Below, in pieces: positions 1-46,003 of a stretch of 46,003 bases of DNA. The notes below the pieces were generated by a model that saw only the letters and a list, made by a program, of their open reading frames with translations, was not told the origin of the DNA and did not search any database. Source of the DNA: a virus (taxonomy: Duplodnaviria; Heunggongvirae; Uroviricota; Caudoviricetes). Both the position numbers and the translations under genes were made by a program. The DNA is taken from positions 1 through 46,003 of IMG/VR virus record IMGVR_UViG_2562617057_000011. The stretch is one strand, 5' to 3'. The first letter of the stretch is position 1. The number at the start of each line of letters is the position of its first letter.

Positions 1-1314
1 CTAACTCACTGATTTTAATAAGCCTCTTGTGTCACTTTGGTGACCATGGGACATCATTGGGACATAATCTGCCAGCTTCTGATTCAGCATTGCGATCTGT
101 TCTGCATTGCTGTCAGTCATCCATGCTCCGTATACATTGAACACCATCTGGGCACTTGCATGCCCCATCTGGCTGGCAATGAAGCTTGGGTTTGCTCCGG
201 CAGATAATGACCAGCACGCATAAGTGTGTCGTGACTGGTATGCTTTCCGGTGCCTGATGCCCGCACGCTTAATGGCTGTTTCCCATGAGTCGCCAATGGA
301 ATCTACCTTGTAGATAAAACCTACCTGTTTGCTTTTTCTAACCACCTGGGGGTTAAATACGAAAGTACATTCATGATTCACTGAACGTCCATATTCACGT
401 AGTTGAACCTTGATGTGGTGCTGCTTACCCAGTCTTGTCATTTCAGCCTGATTTTTCAGGACACTGATAGCGGGCTGGATAAGATGCACAACCCTGTTTG
501 TACTTGCTTCAGTTTTAGGTAGAGTGAACTCACCGAGTTTCGTATAATTGCGCCTGATAGTAATAGTTCCTGCTTTCAGATCGATATCTTCCCAGGCCAG
601 GGAGACCAGTTCACCGTGACGCATTCCTGTGTACACAGCCAATGACCACAGGTTTTTCGTCTGCTGATGTCGGCAAGCATCTATCAGGCGAATAAATTCG
701 TCACGAGTTAGCGGATCTGGCTCTGCCCTGGCTCTTTTAAGAGGCTTAATTCCCTGGAAGGGATTTGCTTCTAAGTAACCGTGATCTGCAGCAAACTGAA
801 ACATTCCAGCGATTGTCGTCATGTAATAATTTACAGTAACGACGCTCCGTCCTTTTGCTGCTGCTTTGTTTTTCGTTGAATTCTGATACCCGGTCAGCAA
901 ATCTTTCCTGATATACAGCAATTCCTCTTTGGTTACCGATGACACCAGTCTGCCGCCTCCAATTTTCGGAACCATCGTTCTTGCAACGGATTCATAGCGA
1001 TTGAATGCATTTGCAGAGATTTCCATTCGTTTCAGATCCAGCCACTTTTCTTCAAGTTCCTTCACCGTAATTTCTTTTTTACTTACCCCAAAAGCCTGAA
1101 GGTTAGGGGAGTCAGGGAACTGTGCAGCATAATCAAAGCTTCCTGTGCGGATGGCAAAACATACCGATGTCCGCAGTTCCCCGGCGATCTTCCTGTTCTT
1201 GGCAGTGTCAGGGACACCAAGATTTTCCCTGACACGTTTACCTTTAAAATTAAACCAGATGCGTAATGTGCCGCCGTGGTTTTCGACGCCTGTTGGATAT
1301 TTGACTTTATCCAT
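1..1314 (-). CDS. int: phage tyrosine integrase (site-specific recombinase), 437 aa
   Basis: Complete minus-strand ORF with stop at 1-3; C-terminal catalytic-type R, H-x-x-R and Y residues; followed by an excisionase gene as in lambdoid int-xis modules. Confidence 0.95.
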   Translation of the reverse strand: MDKVKYPTGVENHGGTLRIWFNFKGKRVRENLGVPDTAKNRKIAGELRTSVCFAIRTGSFDYAAQFPDSPNLQAFGVSKKEITVKELEEKWLDLKRMEISANAFNRYESVARTMVPKIGGGRLVSSVTKEELLYIRKDLLTGYQNSTKNKAAAKGRSVVTVNYYMTTIAGMFQFAADHGYLEANPFQGIKPLKRARAEPDPLTRDEFIRLIDACRHQQTKNLWSLAVYTGMRHGELVSLAWEDIDLKAGTITIRRNYTKLGEFTLPKTEASTNRVVHLIQPAISVLKNQAEMTRLGKQHHIKVQLREYGRSVNHECTFVFNPQVVRKSKQVGFIYKVDSIGDSWETAIKRAGIRHRKAYQSRHTYACWSLSAGANPSFIASQMGHASAQMVFNVYGAWMTDSNAEQIAMLNQKLADYVPMMSHGHQSDTRGLLKSVS

Positions 1315-1369
1315 CGATACCTCCAGACGCCCAAGAGCGATACGAGCTTACATATTTCATGATATTAAA

Positions 1370-1606
1370 TCACCTGGGTTGTTTGTTTTTCATTGAGGCG
1401 ACCCAGGCATCTATTGCTTTTCTGTTATACATACATTCACTGGAAGGCTTTGGATTACCGTCTGGTGATACGTGAATATACTCTCTTCCAACCATCCAGC
1501 ATTCTTTCCGGGCCCGAAGAATTGTGCCTGGTTTGAGCCCGGTAATTGCGATTAGAACGCTTTCACAAACCCATTCATTGGGAGCCAGTTGAATCACATT
1601 GCCCAT
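1370..1606 (-). CDS. xis: excisionase-like small DNA-binding protein, 78 aa
   Basis: Small ORF directly upstream of int on the same strand; sequence resembles enterobacterial prophage excisionases from memory. Confidence 0.75.
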   Translation of the reverse strand: MGNVIQLAPNEWVCESVLIAITGLKPGTILRARKECWMVGREYIHVSPDGNPKPSSECMYNRKAIDAWVASMKNKQPR

Positions 1607-1614
1607 GCATTACC

Positions 1615-1761
1615 TCACACAACACTCAGCCCACGGCAGTGGCACCAGACCTCAAACATTCGTTTCACAATTTCACGACAGTAGAAACCGTCAACATCTC
1701 GCGTCAGGTCGTAGCGGTTGCCGTAACGCTGGTGGACCCATAGCTCAAACGCTTTATTCAT
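1615..1761 (-). CDS. hypothetical small protein, 48 aa (below ORF-track cutoff)
   Basis: ATG at 1761 preceded by AAGGA Shine-Dalgarno; stop 1615-1617 eight nt before the xis start; translated by hand. Confidence 0.35.
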   Translation of the reverse strand: MNKAFELWVHQRYGNRYDLTRDVDGFYCREIVKRMFEVWCHCRGLSVV

Positions 1762-1764
1762 TTT

Positions 1765-2007
1765 TTACTTCCTTTGCATTGCGCGTAATTTCTTCAGGTG
1801 CTTTTCTTGTTCTGTTTCAGCCAGAATCTTGTGATATTCCAGGTGGTCAATATGCTCGAACAGGCTACTGAATTCACCGATGCGTACTCGCCCGGTACGT
1901 CCGTCCATCCTCCGAAAGAACACTGAGTGCTCAGTACTGCGAGTAATTTCTACTGGGTATCCGGCTCTGTCTGTGTATATCTGCCCGCGTTGAATCAAAG
2001 CGAACAT
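1765..2007 (-). CDS. hypothetical protein, 80 aa (ATG start; ORF track extends to a TTG at 2043)
   Basis: ORF-track ORF 1765..2043; internal ATG at 2007 has a GGGGA Shine-Dalgarno 8 nt upstream. Confidence 0.5.
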   Translation of the reverse strand: MFALIQRGQIYTDRAGYPVEITRSTEHSVFFRRMDGRTGRVRIGEFSSLFEHIDHLEYHKILAETEQEKHLKKLRAMQRK

Positions 2008-2011
2008 GTGG

Positions 2012-2095
2012 TTATCCCCATCGACAAATCGAGTACACAACAAACGCTACTGCGAATACCATCCCCAGAGTTACGATTGCATCAGGCCAGCTCAT
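2012..2095 (-). CDS. possible 27-aa hydrophobic peptide (MSWPDAIVTLGMVFAVAFVVYSICRWG)
   Basis: ATG at 2095 preceded by GGAGGTG; single predicted transmembrane stretch; stop lies 4 nt before the next ATG. Confidence 0.3.
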   Translation of the reverse strand: MSWPDAIVTLGMVFAVAFVVYSICRWG

Positions 2096-2130
2096 TGATT
2101 CACCTCCTGCGGCGTCCTGGTATTCGATTT

Positions 2131-2700
2131 TCATTCCGGATGCTCCTGAGCCACGTTGAAATCGCCATGATCACGACAAGGCATCACAACAAATTCAGGA
2201 TTGCCATACATTGAGTTGATGATGGAATCAAACTGAATTCTGACCGCTTGCCCGTCACCGGAGGGACGTAACTGGACGGGAATAAATTTACGCTCACGAC
2301 CAAACATCTTCTCTGGATAACTCAGGTAACCCGCCTGGAGCACCGGGTGAGTACAGCGGTCAAACTTTTTCGGAATGATGCGATCCAAATCCGGAAAACA
2401 ACCGTCCACCAGTTTAATGCCGGTAATGGACAGTCGTCGCTGAAACTGGTCGCGATGAACAGCGATCGGCTCTTTACTAAAAATCAGCTCTGTCGTTTCG
2501 GCTTTGGCCGGGACGCCCCCTTCGAACTGGACAATGATGTTTTTCTTCGTCCGGATGCCGTGAGCCATGCGCAGTGCCACGGAACCATTGGTTGCCTCAA
2601 TATGTTTCGGCGTGATGTGAAGACCGTTCAGGTAATAACGAACGTCGTTTTTAGCAGCGCACACCAGAGCGGCGCGAATAAGTTTTGACTGGATGATCAT
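2131..2700 (-). CDS. truncated DNA polymerase III beta sliding-clamp (DnaN) homolog, 189 aa
   Basis: Motifs DVRYYLNG, ATNG, KLVDGCFPD..RIIPK and C-terminal FVVMP match E. coli DnaN domains II/III as recalled; ATGA start overlap with the upstream gene. Confidence 0.75.
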   Translation of the reverse strand: MIIQSKLIRAALVCAAKNDVRYYLNGLHITPKHIEATNGSVALRMAHGIRTKKNIIVQFEGGVPAKAETTELIFSKEPIAVHRDQFQRRLSITGIKLVDGCFPDLDRIIPKKFDRCTHPVLQAGYLSYPEKMFGRERKFIPVQLRPSGDGQAVRIQFDSIINSMYGNPEFVVMPCRDHGDFNVAQEHPE

Positions 2701-3446
2701 GCTTTATCCTCCCATCCGATCACCTGGAAAAGCCCCATCTTCGGGTGATACCAGCGTGTGCCGCGTGGTTCAGCCTCTGACATCATTTGGTGGAACGCCG
2801 CCATAAATGGCTCAAGCTCGACGATAGCCCTGCGAGACAACAGACCGTCCGGAGTCATGAATTCGTGGGTGTCTGTAGGAATTTGATATGCGTTCACCAG
2901 ATTCCGACACTTGGCGTCACTCATTCCACTTTTGGCTACCACCTGGCGGTAACCGACATATCCGGCGCGCATTGTGCCGCGTTTGATGTTCTCCACAGCT
3001 TTGGTGACCGTTTCGATCTTCTTTTCAACATGACTCAGGCGCTTTTGCTGGCGAACGGCATCGGCGGCCATTGCAGCGATCATCTCCATTTCCGTCAGCG
3101 GCGCGTGAGTTCGGAAATAGCTGTTAACCAGTTCGCGCTGAACCTGCCAGGCCAGATCGTCGGTGAAGGATTTCACCAACATCAAATAACCGGATTCGAC
3201 CAGTACAATTCCTGCTGCTGCAAATTTTGAGAAAGTACCGTCAGGGAGGTGTCGACGAATTTCGTCGGAACCTAATTCGAAGTAGTCTTCCCCTTCAATA
3301 AGACGAGACTTGTTTTCGCGGAAATTGCGTCCCGCTGTTCCGTCCGGGCGTTGGTGCACTTCATCAATCATCGCCAGCGTCACCATGCGCTGACCGCGAT
3401 ATTCGATTACCGGAAACTGTTTGTTGTTGATGGTTACAGTATTCAT
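2697..3446 (-). CDS. KilA-N/ORF6N-domain antirepressor-like protein, 249 aa
   Basis: ATG at 3446 with GGAGA Shine-Dalgarno; N-terminal ORF6N/KilA-N-like region; C-terminal ~130 aa paralogous to the C-terminus of the Rha protein at 9715-10428. Confidence 0.8.
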   Translation of the reverse strand: MNTVTINNKQFPVIEYRGQRMVTLAMIDEVHQRPDGTAGRNFRENKSRLIEGEDYFELGSDEIRRHLPDGTFSKFAAAGIVLVESGYLMLVKSFTDDLAWQVQRELVNSYFRTHAPLTEMEMIAAMAADAVRQQKRLSHVEKKIETVTKAVENIKRGTMRAGYVGYRQVVAKSGMSDAKCRNLVNAYQIPTDTHEFMTPDGLLSRRAIVELEPFMAAFHQMMSEAEPRGTRWYHPKMGLFQVIGWEDKA

Positions 3447-3489
3447 TTTTATCTCCAGACAGCCCGGCGTGTAATACCGGGCATATGTA

Positions 3490-4320
3490 TTACTTAACCT
3501 GAATAAATGGTGTGTTGGCACCGCTGGTCATGTACTGCGGCAGTGTGCCGTTCCATTTATTGATGGCTTCCAGCTCCATAACACCGGGGTTCTGGCGCAG
3601 AGCTTCACCGCGTAAACGAATTGCATCGGCTTCGGCCTGGGCTTTTGTGCGAATCGCATCAGCCTGTCCGGCAGCTTCTGCACGCAGCATGTTGGCTTCT
3701 GCTTCGCGTTGTTTAACTTCCTGCTCGCGTTGCAGTGTTTTCTGGTTTGCCGTGACTTTGGCGTTAATGCTGTCGATAACGGTTGGTGGGTACTCTGGCT
3801 TACCCACATATGAGAGGCTCATTACCTGAATACCGATGGGTGTCATTTCTTCCTGGATGTCTTTTAGAGCGGCATCCAGTAATTCAGATTTACCGCCGTC
3901 AATAAATTTGTCGGTGGTCATTTTGCTGGCCAGCCGATTGAGTGCGTCGGCGATCTTCTGGCGCAGGTCGGTGTTGGTAATGTCATCCACGCCTTTGCGG
4001 TAAGTCTGAAACACCGTGGTAACTTTGGATGGATCAACTTTGTAGGCCACGCCGATGTGATAGCCGATGGTTGTGCCGTCACTCATCTGGAAACTGAACG
4101 GTTCATCGTAGGTCTTCATTTGCTTGAAGGTCGGGAAAATGTAAACTTCAGTATTCCAGCCAGTCCAGTAGCGACCAACACCGACCACTTCACCGACACC
4201 TTTGTCGTCGCCCAGTTTGTTGACTTTGATACCCACATTACCTGGTTCAACGCGATCGCAACCTACAAGTCCGAAGACAGCCAGACTGACCGCGAAAACA
4301 AGCGCAATTGTTTTTTTCAT
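3490..4320 (-). CDS. SPFH/band-7 (prohibitin-family) lipoprotein with coiled-coil C-terminus, 276 aa
   Basis: Signal peptide with lipobox LVGC; SPFH-like core; Ala/Gln/Glu/Arg-rich coiled-coil tail; ATGA overlap with the upstream small membrane ORF. Confidence 0.85.
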   Translation of the reverse strand: MKKTIALVFAVSLAVFGLVGCDRVEPGNVGIKVNKLGDDKGVGEVVGVGRYWTGWNTEVYIFPTFKQMKTYDEPFSFQMSDGTTIGYHIGVAYKVDPSKVTTVFQTYRKGVDDITNTDLRQKIADALNRLASKMTTDKFIDGGKSELLDAALKDIQEEMTPIGIQVMSLSYVGKPEYPPTVIDSINAKVTANQKTLQREQEVKQREAEANMLRAEAAGQADAIRTKAQAEADAIRLRGEALRQNPGVMELEAINKWNGTLPQYMTSGANTPFIQVK

Positions 4321-4505
4321 TTTTCCCTCCCGGGGAAAGAAAGACCCTTATAAATGGCATAAATGCAGGGCGGGGTCAGACACGCCAGAGCAAAGCCAGA
4401 AATCACTGCTACCGTATCCTTCATTGATATGAGGGCCGGAACGATTAATCCGTAAATACATGCGATAATTGCCAGTGATATAACTATTCTGAAATAAATG
4501 TTCAT
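4317..4505 (-). CDS. small two-helix membrane protein, 62 aa (ORF track extends to 4538 inside the IS end)
   Basis: Two hydrophobic segments; ATG at 4505 is exactly at the IS target-site duplication; translationally coupled to the SPFH gene. Confidence 0.5.
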   Translation of the reverse strand: MNIYFRIVISLAIIACIYGLIVPALISMKDTVAVISGFALACLTPPCIYAIYKGLSFPGREK

Positions 4506-4549
4506 GTGAGGTGTACTGGCAATAGCGGACACTACCATTTGTTCTTTTT

Positions 4550-5368
4550 TTAAGCAGCCATCTGATGATATTTTTCCCTGAAGGCTGCCGGGGAGATATT
4601 CCCCAGACGAGAGTGACGACGCTGACGATTGTAGAAAATCTCAATGTATTCCCGTATTACTGAGATGGCTTCATCCCGGTTATTAAAACGATAGTGGCTC
4701 AGGCTCTCATTTTTCAGCGTTCCCCAGAAGCTTTCCATCGGAGCGTTGTCGTAACAGTTACCTTTACGCGACATTGATGTTTTCAGACCAAACTGCTCCT
4801 GTATGACCCGGTAATCGTATGCGCAGTACTGTGAACCTCGATCAGAGTGGTGGATTAGCCCGGCAGGTGGGCGCTGGCTCCTGAGCGCCATAAACAGGGC
4901 TTTACCTGTCAGCTCTTTTGTCATGCGCTCTCCCATGGCGTAGCCGACAATTTCGCACGTATAAACATCTTTGATGCCAGCGAGGTACAACCATCCCTCC
5001 TGTGTGGCAACATACGTCAGGTCCGCCACCCAGACCTGATTTGGTGCTGTAGGAGCGAACGTCTGGTTCAGCAGATTTGGCGCAACTGGCAGATTGTGGT
5101 TCGAGTTCGTAGTCGCTCTGAACTTGCGTTTCTGCTTACAGCGTAGCCTTAGCTCCTTACGAAGACGTGCCAGTCGGTCACGACCAACGATGATGCCATT
5201 CTCTGCCAGCTCCGTCTGGAGCCGCCGGGTTCCATATGTTTCGCGAGTGCGGATATGTGCCACCTTAATCTCCAGTTTTAGCCGCTCATCACTTTGTTTT
5301 CTGTCTGAGGGTTCATGCTGTACCCAGTTGTAATAACCGCTCCTGGATACACCAAATACCTGACACAT
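4550..5368 (-). CDS. IS3-family transposase OrfB (integrase core; made as OrfAB by -1 frameshift)
   Basis: DDE-type integrase-like sequence typical of IS3-family OrfB; overlaps the orfA reading frame. Confidence 0.9.
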   Translation of the reverse strand: MCQVFGVSRSGYYNWVQHEPSDRKQSDERLKLEIKVAHIRTRETYGTRRLQTELAENGIIVGRDRLARLRKELRLRCKQKRKFRATTNSNHNLPVAPNLLNQTFAPTAPNQVWVADLTYVATQEGWLYLAGIKDVYTCEIVGYAMGERMTKELTGKALFMALRSQRPPAGLIHHSDRGSQYCAYDYRVIQEQFGLKTSMSRKGNCYDNAPMESFWGTLKNESLSHYRFNNRDEAISVIREYIEIFYNRQRRHSRLGNISPAAFREKYHQMAA

Positions 5369-5403
5369 CGCTTCAATGGGAAATTGTTGTCGCCATTGTT
5401 CGA

Positions 5404-5706
5404 TTAACGCGTATTTTTCAGCGACTCCTGTGCAAAATACGCTGTTGCTTTTTTTAATATATCTCGCTCAAGGCGAGCTTCATTTAACGCCTTACGCAGT
5501 TGCAGAATTTCAGATTCCAGTTCAGCCACCGTGCGGGAACCAGGAGTACCGAGCCCTTTTCTGGCGGCGGTAACCCATTGTCCTAAAGTGCCTTCAGGAA
5601 GGGATAATCGGGAAGCGCCTTCACTGATCGAAAGTTGATTTTCAAGAACCGTTCTGACAGCTTCGGCTTTGAACTCTTTAGAGTAACGTTGGGTTTTTCT
5701 GCTCAT
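5404..5706 (-). CDS. IS3-family transposase OrfA (HTH and leucine-zipper part)
   Basis: 100-aa ORF with HTH and heptad-Leu region typical of IS3-family OrfA. Confidence 0.9.
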   Translation of the reverse strand: MSRKTQRYSKEFKAEAVRTVLENQLSISEGASRLSLPEGTLGQWVTAARKGLGTPGSRTVAELESEILQLRKALNEARLERDILKKATAYFAQESLKNTR

Positions 5707-5832
5707 TATTAGCTCCTTCTGATGCCATTCTATTTCAGGAAGGAGTGTCCGTTAAACTCAGGCTACCTCAATGGTCCTCTTGATGTATTCGGCTTGCCTT
5801 ATTTAATTGCGTCATGGTTAATTTCGTTTACG

Positions 5833-6225
5833 TCAGAATGGTTTTGTTGCCATCAGTTCGTAATATCCGGCGCTCCATGTGTCATATTTTCTGAACCATT
5901 TTTCTGTATACTGTTTCCTGGCGATGAGTCTGCGCAGTCGTCTGATTGTTCGCTGGTGTGCGCGGGTATACTCTGTGGTTGATTCTCCACGTTTCCATAT
6001 CTCATTCCCGTTGAAGATAAAACGCTTGTCAGGATGGCGTTGTCGGAATCCTGAACGTTCAAAAGCGCGGGTGGTCATAAAGAATGCCAGGTAACGAATT
6101 GCCGTTTTTCGGGTGAGGCATTTTTTTGTTCTTCCGTGGCGTGTTACAAAAAATAACGGGCCGACGGGTGTATCATGTTTCTGTAATGCCTGGTCAATGG
6201 CGCTGGCGGTGCGGTTGTCGATCAT
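5833..6225 (-). CDS. hypothetical basic protein, 130 aa
   Basis: ORF with ATGA overlap to the upstream gene; Arg/Lys-rich; no family recognised. Confidence 0.55.
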   Translation of the reverse strand: MIDNRTASAIDQALQKHDTPVGPLFFVTRHGRTKKCLTRKTAIRYLAFFMTTRAFERSGFRQRHPDKRFIFNGNEIWKRGESTTEYTRAHQRTIRRLRRLIARKQYTEKWFRKYDTWSAGYYELMATKPF

Positions 6226-6440
6226 TTCTTTATTTCCCCCGAATAACGTTCATGACTCATTACTTCCCAGTTCCGGCCGTCGTCTTTCGATAACAGCCGC
6301 CAGCGACGGTTAACCTTCAGACTGAGATATCCGTTGCGCTGTATCCGATGCGGGAATATACATCGGCATCTGTACCGCCGCAGGACCAGCAACGCCTGCT
6401 GGTGGACCCACTCAGGAATTCGTGTTGCTGTTAATGTCAC
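6222..6440 (-). CDS. hypothetical protein, 72 aa (start uncertain)
   Basis: ORF in an operon-like array; its 5' end overlaps the upstream gene by 29 nt, so the true start may differ. Confidence 0.35.
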   Translation of the reverse strand: MTLTATRIPEWVHQQALLVLRRYRCRCIFPHRIQRNGYLSLKVNRRWRLLSKDDGRNWEVMSHERYSGEIKK

Positions 6441-6627
6441 TGGTTTCCTCCTGAGCAGGTGCTGTTATCTGATACCCCGCTCTTTCTGCCAGCCATATGA
6501 ATGTATCCATGCTGGCAATCAGCTCTCCATCGCGGACTTTGCAGACATCTGTTACCTGGCCATTTTCAATTGTCATAACGATCTGCACTTTTTCGTGCAC
6601 AACAGATACAGGGGATAAATTAGCCAT
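6412..6627 (-). CDS. hypothetical protein, 71 aa
   Basis: ATG at 6627 overlaps the upstream stop (TGATG); GGAGG Shine-Dalgarno. Confidence 0.5.
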   Translation of the reverse strand: MANLSPVSVVHEKVQIVMTIENGQVTDVCKVRDGELIASMDTFIWLAERAGYQITAPAQEETSDINSNTNS

Positions 6628-6986
6628 CAGTTAATTCCTCCGCTGATATATTTTTCTTTCGCGTAATCAATAACCTCTTGTAAAAGGTTGTCTATAATTA
6701 ACTTTCCGGTTTCAGCCTGGTATTCAGTATGTTGATTAATCCCGATAGCATTCTGGTATGCAGTTCGGATTTCTGTTTCACCCTCCACTCGACCCAATTC
6801 ACCACGGGTAATACCTTCAAAGCGCAACAGCAACTGGTTTATAAACTGTTCTGTTATTTCTATGGTCGTAATGTTCCCATCCAGAAGGTCAACAATAAGC
6901 AGATCACCACCTGTTTTACGTTTTATTCGATGGAGTGCCGCAACAGCTATACGGCGACGATATGTATTAATGGGTTCATGTGTCAT
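6627..6986 (-). CDS. hypothetical protein, 119 aa
   Basis: ORF in the same array; start immediately after a 37-codon upstream ORF. Confidence 0.55.
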   Translation of the reverse strand: MTHEPINTYRRRIAVAALHRIKRKTGGDLLIVDLLDGNITTIEITEQFINQLLLRFEGITRGELGRVEGETEIRTAYQNAIGINQHTEYQAETGKLIIDNLLQEVIDYAKEKYISGGIN

Positions 6987-6989
6987 TTG

Positions 6990-7103
6990 TTATTTCCCGT
7001 ATGCTTTACGCAGAAATAAGCAGGCAATATGCATGTAATTTTCACCGTATTGTGCAATAAGGCTGGCGGTCTTGTGTGATGCCATATTCTTTATAAAAGT
7101 CAT
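6990..7103 (-). CDS. possible 37-aa small protein (below ORF-track cutoff)
   Basis: ATG at 7103 with AGGAGG Shine-Dalgarno 7 nt upstream; stop 6990-6992 sits 3 nt before the next start. Confidence 0.3.
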   Translation of the reverse strand: MTFIKNMASHKTASLIAQYGENYMHIACLFLRKAYGK

Positions 7104-7318
7104 AATAAAGCCTCCTGTGGATTAAGGTTGTAACAATCCCCGGCGATAAAACCGCAATAAACGTTCAGGGCATATTTGTTGTTATTGCGCTAATTCTTTT
7201 TCAACAGCGGCTTTTGCATATTCACATGCAAAATTCAGAATTTCACTGCCAAGTGTTTTTGTTTCGTTATTACTGGACGTATGTAACACCTGTGTTGCAT
7301 GCAATAAATGATAAACAT

Positions 7319-7531
7319 TTACCGCAAATGAATCAGGCTCCAATCATCTTGCTGTGAGGTTGTTTCTGTCATTGCTCCTGAAGTACATGCGAGCCTGTTT
7401 TTGACAATTCTCTTTCCTCTAATCACTATATCGGCAACATCTATTGCCTTTACAACCTCCGGGAGAAGTTCCTGGTTTGTATAATCAAAGTTATCAACAT
7501 GGAGAACAGTTATGTTTTCGAACTTTTTCAT
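7319..7531 (-). CDS. hypothetical protein, 70 aa
   Basis: ATG at 7531 with GAGGA Shine-Dalgarno; AT-rich surroundings. Confidence 0.5.
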   Translation of the reverse strand: MKKFENITVLHVDNFDYTNQELLPEVVKAIDVADIVIRGKRIVKNRLACTSGAMTETTSQQDDWSLIHLR

Positions 7532-7659
7532 GGCTTCCTCAGCTGACTTATATGTTCTGCTATATAGCGAGTCTCAGAAGTGTTTTCATATTGAGACTGT
7601 TTCCGCAATGATTGATAAAAATGTTCGCATGTACCTTGAGGGGCGAAGCGGCGATTATG

Positions 7660-8163
7660 TCACCATTGGTATTGGTTCTTCCGTAGAAGAGCTTCGCGAG
7701 ATAAGGAGCAAACTTGTTGAGATGCGTTATGGTGTTGCTGCTCCTCACTTTTTGGTTGCACCGGAGGAGTAACCGCGCCAGTTAACAGCCACATCGGATC
7801 GCAGCCAAGAATATTTGCCAGTGGGATAAGCATACTGATAGTTGGTTCATACTCTCCGCTCTCCCACTGGATGATGACTTCTTCATCGAGATCGAGCAGC
7901 CTGGCGAGTTCGGCGGTTGTTAAGCCGCAGGCTTCGCGTTGGGTGCGAAGACGGTTGTTGATTGCAGAATTTTTGTTCTGTAAAAGCATTGCTGACGATA
8001 GCTTTCTGGATATGCTATTTGTCATATCCCATGCCAGTCCTGCGCATGACTCTATATCGCTAGAGAGCGTAGCATCTGGTGTTGCTTTTGCTATTAGTGT
8101 AATGAGGCTGCCGAGGTTTTTCAGTTCTTCGAGACAGTCAAGAGTTGTAGCTTTATTGATCAT
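7660..8163 (-). CDS. XRE-family HTH DNA-binding protein, 167 aa, first gene leftward of the OL-like operators
   Basis: Cro/C1-type HTH motif (LTTAELARLLDLDEEVIIQWESGE...) in the central part; start abuts the operator region. Confidence 0.65.
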   Translation of the reverse strand: MINKATTLDCLEELKNLGSLITLIAKATPDATLSSDIESCAGLAWDMTNSISRKLSSAMLLQNKNSAINNRLRTQREACGLTTAELARLLDLDEEVIIQWESGEYEPTISMLIPLANILGCDPMWLLTGAVTPPVQPKSEEQQHHNASQQVCSLSREALLRKNQYQW

Positions 8164-8205
8164 GAGATGATACCCCAGTTACGAACTTTGTTTCATGGTA
8201 ACTAA

Positions 8206-8242
8206 GGTATCAAAGCATGGCAAGTAGTTTTTGATACTTTGG
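8206..8242. promoter_or_regulatory. OL-like operator region with repeated TTGATACTTTGG motif
   Basis: TTGATACTTTGG at 8231-8242 and an inverted copy GGTATCAAAG at 8206-8215 just downstream of cI; the same motif recurs upstream of cI. Confidence 0.5.
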
Positions 8243-8259
8243 TTTCTTTTTGTATCTGG

Positions 8260-8916
8260 TCAGAAAATATCCCACCTGGCATCAACCACAACACCTACTA
8301 TTTCGCAATCATTGTCCATTTCTATGATGGGATATTGTGGATTAAGGGGCTTTAGAAACGCCTTCCCCATTTCAGAAATATATTTTTTGAATGTTGCTTC
8401 ATTGGTGGATTTTTTTCTGGCGATGACGTAACACCCTGAAAAAACTTCTTTATCTGGATTGACAAGGATCGACATTCCTTCAGGAAATGTTATTCCTATA
8501 GGCGAAGTCATTGAGTCTCCGTGTACTTCCAGCCAGAAGCCCCTCTCACCAGCGTATTTTACAGAATGCCTCCAATTATCCTGATCATACATGTTGTAGT
8601 CATCACCTGCAGTTGCGAATAATCCTGCCTGAACCCAGTTAATTACAGGGTAAGAGTGTGCTGTGTCTCTCTGGGGACAGCTCTTAACATTATTTTCCCA
8701 ATACTTACCTTTTTCATCTCCGTTCTGAAGCCACTGCGGTGAACACTGCAGTGCCGCTGCGACTTTAAAAAGCGTGTCACCGTTGAAACTTTTTGTAAGA
8801 CCTTGCTCGGCTTTACTGATTGCAACTCTGGTGACCCCAGCTTTTTTAGCCAACGCATCTTGCGTTAACCCAGCTTTTTGTCGTGCGTTGATGAGGCGTT
8901 CACCTAAAGATTTCAT
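8260..8916 (-). CDS. cI: CI-type prophage repressor (XRE HTH plus S24 LexA-like peptidase domain), 218 aa
   Basis: N-terminal HTH, C-terminal S24 peptidase-like domain; ATG at 8916 with AAGGAG Shine-Dalgarno; divergent from a cro-like gene. Confidence 0.9.
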   Translation of the reverse strand: MKSLGERLINARQKAGLTQDALAKKAGVTRVAISKAEQGLTKSFNGDTLFKVAAALQCSPQWLQNGDEKGKYWENNVKSCPQRDTAHSYPVINWVQAGLFATAGDDYNMYDQDNWRHSVKYAGERGFWLEVHGDSMTSPIGITFPEGMSILVNPDKEVFSGCYVIARKKSTNEATFKKYISEMGKAFLKPLNPQYPIIEMDNDCEIVGVVVDARWDIF

Positions 8917-8938
8917 TTTTCTTCTCCTTTCATGGCTG

Positions 8939-8975
8939 CTGATACTAAAGTAACAGAATATCTTGATACTTTGGA
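8939..8975. promoter_or_regulatory. OR-like operator region (divergent promoter region between cI and cro)
   Basis: TTGATACTTTGG at 8964-8975 and TGATACTAAAG at 8939-8950 within the 111-bp cI-cro intergenic region. Confidence 0.55.
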
Positions 8976-9027
8976 TTCTCATGTTTAACATTCTTGGATA
9001 ACAGAGTATCCGGTGTGAGGCTAAAGA

Positions 9028-9237
9028 ATGACCCTTTATGAAATATTAAAAACTCAATTTAAAACCAATGCCGCTATTGGCCGCAGGTTCCCAAAGAAAG
9101 GAAAGCCTCGTGGTAGTCAGGGAGTTGGAAAGTGGAAAACGCGGGGCGTTCCGGAGGATGTTGCCATTCTCTGCCATCTGGATCCGAACATTCCATATAC
9201 ACATCCAAGCTTAGCGCACACAGAGGATGAGAAGTGA
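9028..9237 (+). CDS. cro: Cro-like small regulator, 69 aa (tentative)
   Basis: First rightward gene opposite cI; GAGG Shine-Dalgarno; small basic protein; similarity to Cro/YdaS-type proteins is weak. Confidence 0.55.
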   Translation: MTLYEILKTQFKTNAAIGRRFPKKGKPRGSQGVGKWKTRGVPEDVAILCHLDPNIPYTHPSLAHTEDEK

Positions 9238-9307
9238 TGGTGGTGATATGAGCGAAAAAATAACTATTAAATACGATGGGGCAACAATTTCGATTGCCCC
9301 AATCACA

Positions 9308-10428: not shown

Positions 10429-10645
10429 CGATGTTTACGGGTAATTTATGCAAGTCCTCAATCGCTGGTTCCGTGACGGAAGGGGGCGTCGTGTTCACGT
10501 TATACGCTGGGAGCCTGAAACACAGCGGGTTATTTATCTGCGTGATGGTTATCCATATGAATGTTTCAGCCCGTTGTGGTTGTTCAGGCGTGATTTTGTG
10601 GAGTGTGAAGCGCCGCCGGAATGACGGCACGGTATATACGAAAAA

Positions 10646-11005
10646 TTACGCCGCCTTGCCCAGCGTAAAATCAAAGTGGATGTCGTCATACGGGAATGAC
10701 GTTCCGCGCTCGCTTTTTTCCAGTAAACCGTTGCTGATGAGTGCGGTCACGTCAGTATGCACGCTTTTTACATCACGTCCAACCAGGGCTGCAATTTTTC
10801 GGATGGACATTTCTCCGGCACCAGTCATTGCCATCAGAATGTCCATGCGTTTTGGTGTCAGTACCTTATGCATCATTTGCCAGTCAGGAAATGAAATAAC
10901 GTTTTCTCTGGTTGCTTTTGCTCCGGTAGCTGCTTCCTGGAACGCAGACAGCACATCAGCCGTGAAATTATCCATTGACTCGATTCGGATTGTTACGGTT
11001 CTCAT
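10646..11005 (-). CDS. HTH/winged-helix regulator, putative antitoxin, 119 aa
   Basis: ATG at 11005 lies 1 nt after the upstream stop; C-terminal winged-helix-like segment; family not identified. Confidence 0.65.
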   Translation of the reverse strand: MRTVTIRIESMDNFTADVLSAFQEAATGAKATRENVISFPDWQMMHKVLTPKRMDILMAMTGAGEMSIRKIAALVGRDVKSVHTDVTALISNGLLEKSERGTSFPYDDIHFDFTLGKAA

Positions 11006-11006
11006 G

Positions 11007-11294
11007 TCAGATACCTCTGCGGATGGATTTAACGTCAGCCAGAAAATCAGCGAGCAGTTGTTCAATGGTGACAAAGCTGGTGCTGACTTCCTGACTACCA
11101 ATGTGTTTGTGATCGCCTTTACCCCGTTCGTTGTCGTAACGCATCACACACATGCCATCAACGACATAAGCCATGCTGTATTTGTAGTTGTGCTGGCTAC
11201 CCAATACAGCAGGCTCCACTTCCCATATGCGGATTCGTATGTATTCAGATTCACCGAGATGACGGATGAACTGTTTATACAGTCTGGATGGCAT
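11007..11294 (-). CDS. small protein, putative toxin of a toxin-antitoxin-like pair, 95 aa
   Basis: ATG at 11294 with GAGGA Shine-Dalgarno; tightly coupled to the downstream HTH gene; family not identified. Confidence 0.6.
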   Translation of the reverse strand: MPSRLYKQFIRHLGESEYIRIRIWEVEPAVLGSQHNYKYSMAYVVDGMCVMRYDNERGKGDHKHIGSQEVSTSFVTIEQLLADFLADVKSIRRGI

Positions 11295-11375
11295 TTAAAG
11301 CTTCCTCTGGTTCTTGTTGTAAACAATAACAACAAGGCTTCGCGTTGTCCACAGCTACAACATTTTGATATTGAT

Positions 11376-11648
11376 TCTGCAAGTCCGGGACGTTACACTG
11401 TTCCGGCACCTTATAAAACGGGTGCCGGGATTTGCACCCCGGAATTGATCAAGGCGATATATGACGCGCCAGCGTCTTTTTTATCGTCCACGCTCACGCA
11501 CGCCAGAATTATGGTGGGCTGGGCAGGGGAGCCGAAAGGCTCGCCGGTTTCCTTGATCGCCGGTAGTGCAAACCCTGTTCAGTCCGCCACCAGCGAGATT
11601 TGCACCTCCGGTGGTGGAAGTATTTCACCGATCAAGGAGGCTGCCATT
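11376..11648 (+). repeat. structured RNA leader, unit 1 of 3
   Basis: Hairpin 11403-11428, terminator 11463-11482, GAAA-tetraloop hairpin 11529-11542, helix GTGCAAA 11567-11573 with TTTGCAC 11599-11605, second helix CCACCA 11587-11592 with TGGTGG 11610-11615, SD AAGGAGG 11634-11640. Confidence 0.7.
11463..11482 (+). terminator. intrinsic terminator inside leader unit 1
   Basis: GACGC-GCCA-GCGTC hairpin followed by TTTTTT. Confidence 0.55.
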
Positions 11649-45436: not shown

Positions 45437-46003
45437 GTGGAAATTAAAAAAATCATTAATCCCCGTTATACCGAAAGTGGCGCAGTAGACTGTGACGTTT
45501 TTTTTGACGACAGGGACCAGGCAGTCCCCTACACAGCCACCGCTGATGATGTCGCACCGACGGGTCAGCAAATCTGGCAGGAACTGCAAAGTGGCAAATG
45601 GGGTGAGATAGCCCCATTCACTGTGACACCAGAAATGCTGGAAGCGGCCAGAGAGGCCAGACGTCAGGAAATTGAAGCATGGCGCACAGAACAGGAGGCG
45701 AAGCCGTTCACGTTTGAATGGAACGGTCGTATCTGGAATGCTGGCCCCGACTCACTGGGCCGCCTGTCCCCGGTAGTCATGCTGGCAAAATCTGTCACAG
45801 CACAAACGCATATGGCGTGGGGTGATGCCGATAATCAGCAGGTGAAACTGTCGATGCCGGAACTGGAAGAACTGGCGGCAGCAATGGTGCAGGCGCAGGT
45901 CGATCGCAATGACGAGATTTATCAACGTCAGCGGGAGATGAAGGAAGAACTGAATAACCTGGAGGATTTGGGTTCAATCCGAGCGTTTGGTATTGGCCAA
46001 TAA
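45437..46003 (+). CDS. tfa: tail fibre assembly protein (Tfa-like), 188 aa, GTG start
   Basis: Position directly after stf; GAGGAA Shine-Dalgarno before GTG 45437; stop at 46001-46003 at the window edge. Confidence 0.7.
   Translation: MEIKKIINPRYTESGAVDCDVFFDDRDQAVPYTATADDVAPTGQQIWQELQSGKWGEIAPFTVTPEMLEAAREARRQEIEAWRTEQEAKPFTFEWNGRIWNAGPDSLGRLSPVVMLAKSVTAQTHMAWGDADNQQVKLSMPELEELAAAMVQAQVDRNDEIYQRQREMKEELNNLEDLGSIRAFGIGQ

Follow-up and report, generated by a model that had tools for sequence, protein, structure and literature searches.

A 189-residue prophage homolog of the bacterial beta clamp keeps the segments that build the clamp-binding-motif pocket and may act as a clamp mimic

Bacterial replication and repair center on the beta clamp, and all of its partners use one pocket. 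In Escherichia coli beta, the pocket that receives clamp-binding motifs (CBMs) consists of subsite I (R152, L155, T172, G174, H175, R176, L177, P242, R246, V247, V360, and M362) and subsite II (H175, N320, Y323, V344, M362, P363, M364, and R365) (PMC11139829). Mutation of Ile272/Leu273 turns beta monomeric, and delta docks its residues Leu73 and Phe74 into subsite I of the I272A/L273A monomer (PMC11139829). We analyzed a stretch of Caudoviricetes DNA of 46,003 nucleotides (IMG/VR record IMGVR_UViG_2562617057_000011; hereafter the window) in which a gene on the minus strand, at positions 2131-2700 and with an ATG start, encodes a 189-amino-acid homolog of beta. The product is identical to RefSeq WP_000586688.1, which carries the name 'beta clamp domain-containing protein'.

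The phage protein is predicted to have the fold of a beta clamp. Searches with the single sequence were consistent with clamp identity but weak. All significant matches in the Protein Data Bank (PDB) were beta clamps (E. coli residues 136-256, E ~1e-3), the score against TIGR00663 was 21.2 bits where the curated equivalog cutoff is 137.65, and the sole Pfam match, PF02767, scored 17 bits against a cutoff of 27. Among 46 family members there were no matches to PF00712 or PF02768. Profiles built from the family gave a much clearer result: a 46-member profile matched E. coli beta with E 7e-22, and a 156-member profile did so with 89 bits. An AlphaFold2 model made from 29 homologs had a mean predicted local distance difference test (pLDDT) score of 90.7 and a predicted template modelling score of 0.86. 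It consisted of the beta-alpha-beta-beta-beta repeats of the clamp fold, and its 50 best Foldseek matches in the PDB were beta clamps without exception. Based on the profiles and the model, which together are decisive, we conclude that the predicted fold is that of a clamp. An earlier note, made from the DNA sequence alone, had proposed DnaN homology from four clamp motifs in a fixed order (DVRYYLNG, ATNG, KLVDGCFPD..RIIPK, and FVVMP) in a 189-amino-acid open reading frame (ORF). All four are present in that order, and the profile and structure searches that it called for, in which a lack of similarity would have told against the idea, gave clear similarity to the DnaN fold.

The protein corresponds to about one and a half clamp domains, that is, to three half-domains. 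The segment equivalent to E. coli beta ~129-252 (domain II and the connector) is fused to the segment equivalent to ~312-366 (the second half of domain III). When profiled by itself, the C-terminal segment scored 29.7 bits on half-domain III-b (306-366) versus 6.0 bits on III-a (245-308), the 65 structured residues that remain after residue 111 make up one beta-alpha-beta-beta-beta unit, and the retained motifs FN..Y and VVMPMR are, in profile alignments, those of the second half of domain III. Foldseek aligned the 189-residue query with full-length clamps over ~255-265 columns, a span that would be expected if ~60 residues of the target, those of III-a, were skipped. Absent from the protein are domain I and half-domain III-a, the latter including the dimer-interface positions Ile272/Leu273. 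At the position of the second domain-II helix of beta, no helix was predicted; residues 60-68 were assigned as coil by DSSP on the model.

The canonical head-to-tail beta2 ring therefore cannot form from this protein, since domain I and III-a are missing. A DnaN has three tandem clamp domains in ~366 amino acids and a dimer interface made between domain I and domain III; here there are 189 amino acids, and both segments that contribute to the interface are gone. The phage protein is thus not a DnaN in the curated sense, in that it fails on domain number, score, and dimer interface and passes on fold and pocket. The segments that are kept are those that jointly build the CBM pocket in beta.

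The pocket elements can be followed along the sequence (all coordinates on the minus strand). Residues 1-111 (2368-2700) are domain II (E. coli ~129-250) with the connector between domains II and III, as judged from hidden Markov model alignments to beta 136-252. Within them, DVRYYLNG (residues 19-26, 2623-2646) aligns with beta D150-G157 and contains the pocket residues R152 and L155, which are conserved in 98% and 96% of 156 family members, respectively. ATNGS (residues 36-40, 2581-2595; the ATNG quoted above is residues 36-39) aligns with A171-H175 and keeps T172 and G174, with Ser at the His175 site. The stretch KLVDGCFPDLDRIIPK (residues 96-111, 2368-2415) aligns with K235-K250 and contains the sites of P242, R246, and V247. 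Residues 112-176 (2173-2367) form the single half-domain equivalent to III-b (~312-365), as indicated by the segment profile and alignments; here Q122 and Y125 correspond to N320 and Y323, and FVVMPCR (residues 170-176, with FVVMP at 170-174) corresponds to Y359-R365.

Past the canonical MPxR end there is a C-terminal extension of 13 residues, DHGDFNVAQEHPE (2134-2172), delimited by alignments and by model confidence, which falls to a pLDDT of 77 and then 53 in the last two blocks of 10 residues. In the family alignments this extension is confined to an enterobacterial prophage clade, and most family members stop at MPMR[LIVD]. Across the clade it is 10-13 residues long with a recurring [DN]-x-x-F-[KN]-V (DHGDFNV, DNAFKV, DDYFKV). 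It could fold back onto the pocket.

The pocket is the best conserved part of the family. We mapped the 18 pocket residues listed in a review (PMC11139829) onto the 156-member family alignment. The E. coli beta sequence used for this was checked against HMMER output (residues 136-301 and 312-366) and the residue numbers in the review. Mean identity of the family to E. coli beta was 69% at the pocket positions, compared with 22% over the 136 aligned positions outside the pocket (Mann-Whitney p 2.5e-7). Of the 19 family columns with conservation of 80% or more, 10 belong to the pocket, and most of the remainder adjoin it. The window protein itself shares 11 of the 18 residues with E. coli beta, and two of the differences, V247I and N320Q, are conservative; at the level of sequence it carries the residues of both subsites that are expected of a DnaN. 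Judged from these alignments, the short clamp family appears to be a CBM pocket plus just enough scaffold to hold it.

Two pocket sites vary in the clade to which the window protein belongs. The His175 site is His in 92% of the family and Ser40 in the window protein (codon 40, 2581-2583). We take His175 of beta to be the bridge between the two subsites and a key pocket residue. Among E. coli prophage alleles that are at least 95% identical, site 40 is F, S, or C, and in the wider prophage clade (loci L004-L083) it is H, F, S, R, C, or Y. Site 150, the equivalent of V344, is the most variable pocket site in that clade, and the rest of the pocket is nearly invariant. Variation at sites 40 and 150 could reflect either tuning of specificity or loss of function.

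The gene is intact and is kept by selection, and it belongs to a large family of short beta clamps found in phages and prophages. Close homologs of 185-191 amino acids are found in prophages of Escherichia, Salmonella, Klebsiella, Citrobacter, Cronobacter, Serratia, Providencia, Photorhabdus, and others, and relatives at ~30% identity are found in 217 GenBank phage records, including skateviruses, Dhillonvirus, Serratia phage Eta, and vibriophages. When 1.84 billion cluster representatives were searched exhaustively with a profile, 2,820 matched at E<=1e-10; of the 150 best matches, nearly all had lengths of 170-214 amino acids. In a library of phage protein structures (BFVD), many models of 163-209 amino acids superposed on the window protein with template modelling scores of 0.7-0.8. 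The ratio of nonsynonymous to synonymous substitution rates (dN/dS) was 0.05-0.09 in comparisons with prophage homologs that are ~80% identical. Residues 1-179 matched positions 3-188 of the 190 in the profile of PHROG 3007 (E 5.9e-65). The window protein has the length (~170-215 amino acids) and the domain II plus III-b architecture of the family, as well as its invariant motifs (RYYL.G, T.GH, FPD, Y, and MP.R), save for the His that is Ser40 here. The earlier note had called the protein truncated, at about half the length of DnaN. That description holds for the architecture, from which domain I and III-a are missing, but not in the sense of a broken gene, given the conserved length and the purifying selection.

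A homolog of the clamp gene is dispensable in a lytic phage. Skatevirus seszw has been subjected to CRISPR-driven genome reduction (PMC9825161), and we inferred dispensability from the deposited genomes of the mutants. The coat gene (at least 99% identity) was present in 72 records and the clamp gene in 47, so that the clamp homolog is missing from ~25 of the 72 sequenced, viable, genome-reduced mutants. One clone, seszw_170L (MZ375327.1), a large-plaque isolate according to the nomenclature of the paper, is without genes 16-17, and gene 16 is the clamp homolog. We conclude that the Skatevirus homolog is accessory and can be deleted without loss of plaque formation, which, at least under laboratory conditions, speaks against a processivity factor that the phage cannot do without.

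The genes next to the clamp gene change between lineages. There was no universal neighbor in 66 more diverse loci from 22 lineages. In 20 of the 66, the order was cII, clamp, O-like initiator, and DnaB/P, which places the clamp inside a lambda-type replication module. Other diverse loci had ResIII helicases, primase, or ParB-HTH proteins, with SSB or a helicase in single loci, and Dam methylases adjoined the clamp gene in phage and contig loci that were inspected individually. Replication-module genes are the commonest recognizable theme among the neighbors. Because the pocket is conserved while the phage neighbors change, a ligand that is supplied by the host or that carries a generic motif is indicated, and we believe that the findings point to a ligand of the short clamp that is host-encoded or a generic motif. 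Searches for canonical CBMs found none in the ORF6N, SPFH, DUF4222, and 40-amino-acid proteins encoded near the clamp gene in the window, nor in the neighbors of the clamp genes of Eta, EP23, and Pu29, and the only terminal CBM matches across the window were in two tail-gene products and are probably due to chance.

The protein CII was considered as a general ligand and rejected. Seven of the 20 CII proteins encoded directly upstream of the clamp (loci L102-L121, metagenomic lambdoid loci from IMG/VR) have the C-terminus Q-[IV]-x-[MI]-x-F, formally a match to the hexameric CBM; the tail is absent from the other 13, and the window prophage has no recognizable cII. Lambda CII itself ends in ...EQIQMEF, a tail known as a signal for degradation by FtsH.

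In Dhillonvirus (Shigella phage EP23, 5080-6438, minus strand), the clamp gene and its neighbor form a two-gene island on the opposite strand within the head-gene region. The neighbor is nmad5 (PF18757, E 2e-58). A K-to-E mutation in a Dhillonvirus nmad5 gene allows these phages to escape from the Tmn defense system, in a report that does not mention the adjacent clamp gene (PMC11846954).

We believe that the short clamp may be a soluble pocket module that binds motifs of the QLxLF and QxxLxF types and acts as a decoy or an adaptor, and we give this reading, which is based on the conservation of the pocket residues, a probability of roughly one half. Such a module would bind QL[SD]LF- or QxxLxF-type motifs of host or phage proteins, and candidate host partners would include the alpha, epsilon, and delta subunits of Pol III, Hda, Pol II, Pol IV, Pol V, MutS, and MutL. 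As a decoy, it would draw partners away from the host clamp, competing for selected ones; as an adaptor, it would bring one CBM partner to phage DNA or to a phage protein. In either case its role would be an accessory one, in the early phase associated with replication, rather than that of an essential processivity factor, and in the window prophage it would be co-translated with a DNA-binding protein of the ORF6N antirepressor-like type. Phages, lambdoid ones included, are known to act on the host clamp: the lambda small RNA LPR1/PreS raises dnaN translation (bioRxiv 10.1101/2024.10.31.621285), and MuC of phage Mu binds and recruits the clamp (PMC12867686). The earlier note had suggested a clamp mimic or competitor that interferes with the replication of the host or of competing phages. 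The idea of a mimic or competitor fits the family-wide conservation of the pocket residues, but interference with competing phages found no support.

Several points weigh against the pocket module. If the protein were a general sink for CBM proteins, host Pol III, on which a lambdoid phage itself depends, would be hit as well. With Ser at the His175 site here and Phe or Cys in the closest alleles, this clade may have a changed or retuned pocket. Canonical DnaN, too, has its best conserved residues in the pocket, and the signal could in part be an inherited structural constraint. The basic isoelectric point (pI) of the protein, 9.2, could instead mean direct binding of nucleic acid. Finally, an insertion sequence lies upstream in the operon (see below), and expression of the window copy may be reduced.

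The protein might instead encircle DNA as a clamp of non-canonical stoichiometry, tethering a phage or host enzyme to it, and we regard this as unlikely. For example, two III-b halves could pair across a twofold axis, and four copies (4 x 1.5 = 6 domains) would then close a ring of D2 symmetry. The particular form in which the ring is closed by four subunits, with 12 half-domains, pockets on both faces, and a stoichiometry never described for clamps, is slightly less likely again. The subunit does have three half-domains, where a clamp ring has 12, four times as many, and from the clamp fold one would expect a lone half-domain to expose a core surface that favors self-association. Clamp-like proteins in the phage structure library form a length series of ~180, 240-265, and 340-400 amino acids, indicating that subunit size varies, the neighbors are often replication or DNA-modification genes, and a basic pI fits contact with DNA. 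The family median pI is 8.4, compared with 5.25 for E. coli beta; the charge is also compatible with binding the acidic flanks of CBMs and does not discriminate between the models. On the other hand, the model lacks a helix at the position of one of the helices that line the channel of beta, no clamp-loader gene was seen adjoining the clamp in the loci inspected, the homolog is dispensable in a lytic phage, and the symmetry argument comes from textbook clamp geometry. If true, a tetrameric ring would be a fourth clamp architecture beside beta2, the trimers of PCNA and gp45, and the C-clamps of herpesviruses, and a present-day representative of the half-domain ancestor from which clamps are proposed to have evolved.

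A similarly small chance attaches to the possibility that the short clamp is the dedicated partner subunit of the ORF6N/Ant-like protein with which it is co-translated. The pocket, or the exposed face of the half-domain, would bind the Ant-like protein, for example through a C-terminal W-x-HP-x-x-G-x-F tail, and the pair would act in antirepression, superinfection exclusion, or defense and not on the host replisome. The arrangement of the two genes is what favors this. In the window, the stop codon of the upstream ORF6N gene and the start codon of the clamp gene overlap as ATGA at 2697-2700 (tcat on the plus strand), and the coupling to a KilA-N/antirepressor-like gene described in the earlier note is thus confirmed. 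Among 80 related prophage loci of the enterobacterial clade, in which the clamp gene is 1-3.7 kb from int, in an accessory region beside int and xis, the ORF immediately upstream clusters by similarity with the window ORF6N/Ant-like gene in 72. The ATGA arrangement, with the upstream ORF ending 3 nucleotides past the first base of the clamp gene, was found in 65 of those 72. In 65 of the 80 loci, the upstream antirepressor-like proteins share the C-terminal W-x-HP-x-x-G-x-F (window: RWYHPKMGLFQVIGWEDKA) whatever their N-terminal domain; one example is an 84-amino-acid zinc-ribbon-like protein ending in FEHPAVGRFQIIKQEADA. No Pfam family covers this C-terminal module. However, outside the enterobacterial clade the clamp has other neighbors (cII and O, ParB-HTH, Nmad5, Dam, and helicases) and the pocket is still conserved family-wide, and the tail motif does not match the CBM consensus. 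Neither the clamp nor the ORF6N protein had a match at E<=1 to the defense models of PADLOC-DB v2. We also considered covariation between the type of Ant-like tail and pocket sites 40 and 150 and set it aside; the association is confounded by shared ancestry.

It is very improbable that the gene is a decaying, functionless remnant of a captured host dnaN. The half length, the single-sequence scores under the curated cutoffs, and the insertion sequence in the prophage could be read that way, but the length is conserved over thousands of clusters, dN/dS is low as given above, the AlphaFold2 model is compact and of high confidence, E. coli beta is matched at only ~20% identity, and the missing parts have precise boundaries that are themselves conserved. 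We therefore rejected this reading as contradicted by the evidence on conservation and fold. Least credible of all is that the protein is a RusA-like Holliday junction resolvase, a reading that comes only from the label of PHROG 3007 and annotations derived from it and that is contradicted by a fold and profile that match beta clamps only.

The RusA-like label is a mis-annotation that has spread from PHROGs into RefSeq phage records. Family members in phage records are called 'DNA polymerase III beta subunit', 'putative beta-clamp protein', 'DNA polymerase', or 'RusA-like Holliday junction resolvase', the last being the label of PHROG 3007 and also appearing in RefSeq NC_054639, NC_054642, and NC_031918. 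The label is wrong because a Pfam search of the window protein gave no match to RusA (PF05866) at E<=1 and the fold is that of a clamp. The labels 'DNA polymerase III beta subunit', 'DNA polymerase', and 'RusA-like resolvase' overstate or misstate what the short clamp family can do. The homology of the family is thus already known to annotation pipelines, and the 1.5-domain, pocket-only architecture and its role are undescribed. We found no functional study of the short clamp family in the literature on phage-encoded, truncated, or DnaN-like clamps, and there was no solved structure of a family member among the top 50 Foldseek matches in the PDB, all of which were chains of 356-468 amino acids. 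A survey of the ParB fold does not cover the family, and a paper on serine-integrase recombination directionality factors mentions clamps in passing only.

The position of the clamp gene fits the early-left operon of a lambdoid prophage, as the earlier note had placed it. The gene shares its strand with the integrase and excisionase genes, and the gene for a LexA-family (cI-like) repressor is upstream on the same strand. The ORF6N-domain (KilA-N-related) antirepressor-like gene is at 2697-3521 (2697-3446 with the RefSeq start; Pfam ORF6N 3.5e-14; PHROG category anti-repressor), and just upstream of the ORF6N-clamp pair, at 3490-4320, is a gene for an SPFH/Band-7 lipoprotein (Pfam 6e-31; PHROG 200), all on the minus strand. 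The SPFH/Band-7 gene accompanies the pair in ~20 of the 80 related loci. Downstream of the clamp gene, on the same strand, an ORF of 40 amino acids with a hydrophobic segment (2012-2134) begins with a second ATGA overlap, at 2131-2134; it adjoins the clamp only in the closest 20 loci.

Farther upstream, the insertion sequence IS600 (IS3 family, programmed frameshift; 4550-5706, minus strand) splits the upstream early genes from the block h73-SPFH-ORF6N-clamp-xis-int and does not itself belong to the clamp module. The sole sigma-70-like promoter match on the minus strand in 1300-6400 is inside IS600. The insertion may be polar on the clamp gene and on xis and int.

A nearly identical E. coli chromosome matched window positions 1300-4400 at 99.9% identity. 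The order there is int, xis, a small ORF, DUF4222, the 40-amino-acid ORF, clamp, ORF6N, SPFH, a small ORF, and IS600, followed by further early genes and then the LexA-family repressor gene, all on one strand, in a complete lambdoid prophage. This prophage carries a DnaB-type helicase and loader, a Q antiterminator, a DNA methyltransferase, four tRNAs, and lambda-like head and tail genes. Several other features of the prophage were apparent. The tRNAs (Gly, Thr, Arg, and Ile) are downstream of the methyltransferase gene, and there are two DUF4222 genes. In the RefSeq record for the chromosome, the early-left operon contains a ParE-family toxin-like gene, and a TumE-family toxin-antitoxin pair lies close to the Rha and ash genes, both in regions corresponding to window ~5800-9300 and 10500-11400. 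At the tail-fiber end the prophage is abutted by ipaH, which encodes a type III secretion system effector and E3 ubiquitin ligase (window ~45700-46003, by correspondence with NZ_CM177021.1 2824060-2825811). This suggests a host background like that of enteroinvasive E. coli or Shigella, or effector cargo at the edge of the prophage.

If the pocket is functional, the short clamp family would be a natural tool to rewire or jam the clamp hub, and its ligands would reveal which clamp interactions phages must block or borrow. It would also provide a minimal, probably monomeric, scaffold for studies of how the pocket recognizes peptides and for inhibitor screening.

Comparison with described clamps and clamp-directed phage proteins places the window protein as follows. 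E. coli beta (DnaN; PDB 1MMI/2POL) is acidic and has 366 amino acids, whereas the phage protein is basic and has 189, is without domain I, III-a, the Ile272/Leu273 positions, and, by prediction, the second domain-II helix, and scores far under the TIGR00663 cutoff. The beta mutant I272A/L273A (PDB 1JQL, the delta-beta complex) is likewise unable to close a ring and still presents the pocket, and it is the closest experimental precedent for the proposed free pocket module. In contrast to the phage protein, it is a laboratory mutant with all three domains; the phage protein is non-ring by deletion and belongs to a natural, conserved family.

Closest in sequence are members of the same family, Serratia phage Eta gp10, Shigella phage EP23 p08, and gene 16 of Salmonella phages Skate and seszw, which are ~30% identical to the window protein over ~90% of its length and agree with it in length and motifs. 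Their genes belong to lytic siphoviruses and lie in small cassettes or replication modules, whereas the window copy is int-proximal, in the early-left region of a temperate lambdoid prophage, and its product has the 13-residue C-terminal extension and Ser in place of His at the His175 site.

The trimeric clamps PCNA and T4 gp45 have two complete domains per subunit and ~230-260 amino acids, an architecture that the phage protein does not have. The herpesvirus proteins UL42, UL44, PF-8, and BMRF1 have two full domains, are unrelated in sequence, and are essential polymerase subunits, unlike the phage homolog, which is dispensable. Gp168 of Twort-like phages and MuC of Mu are also phage proteins that manipulate the function of the beta clamp. 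They have unrelated folds and bind the clamp itself, whereas here the phage encodes a piece of the clamp.

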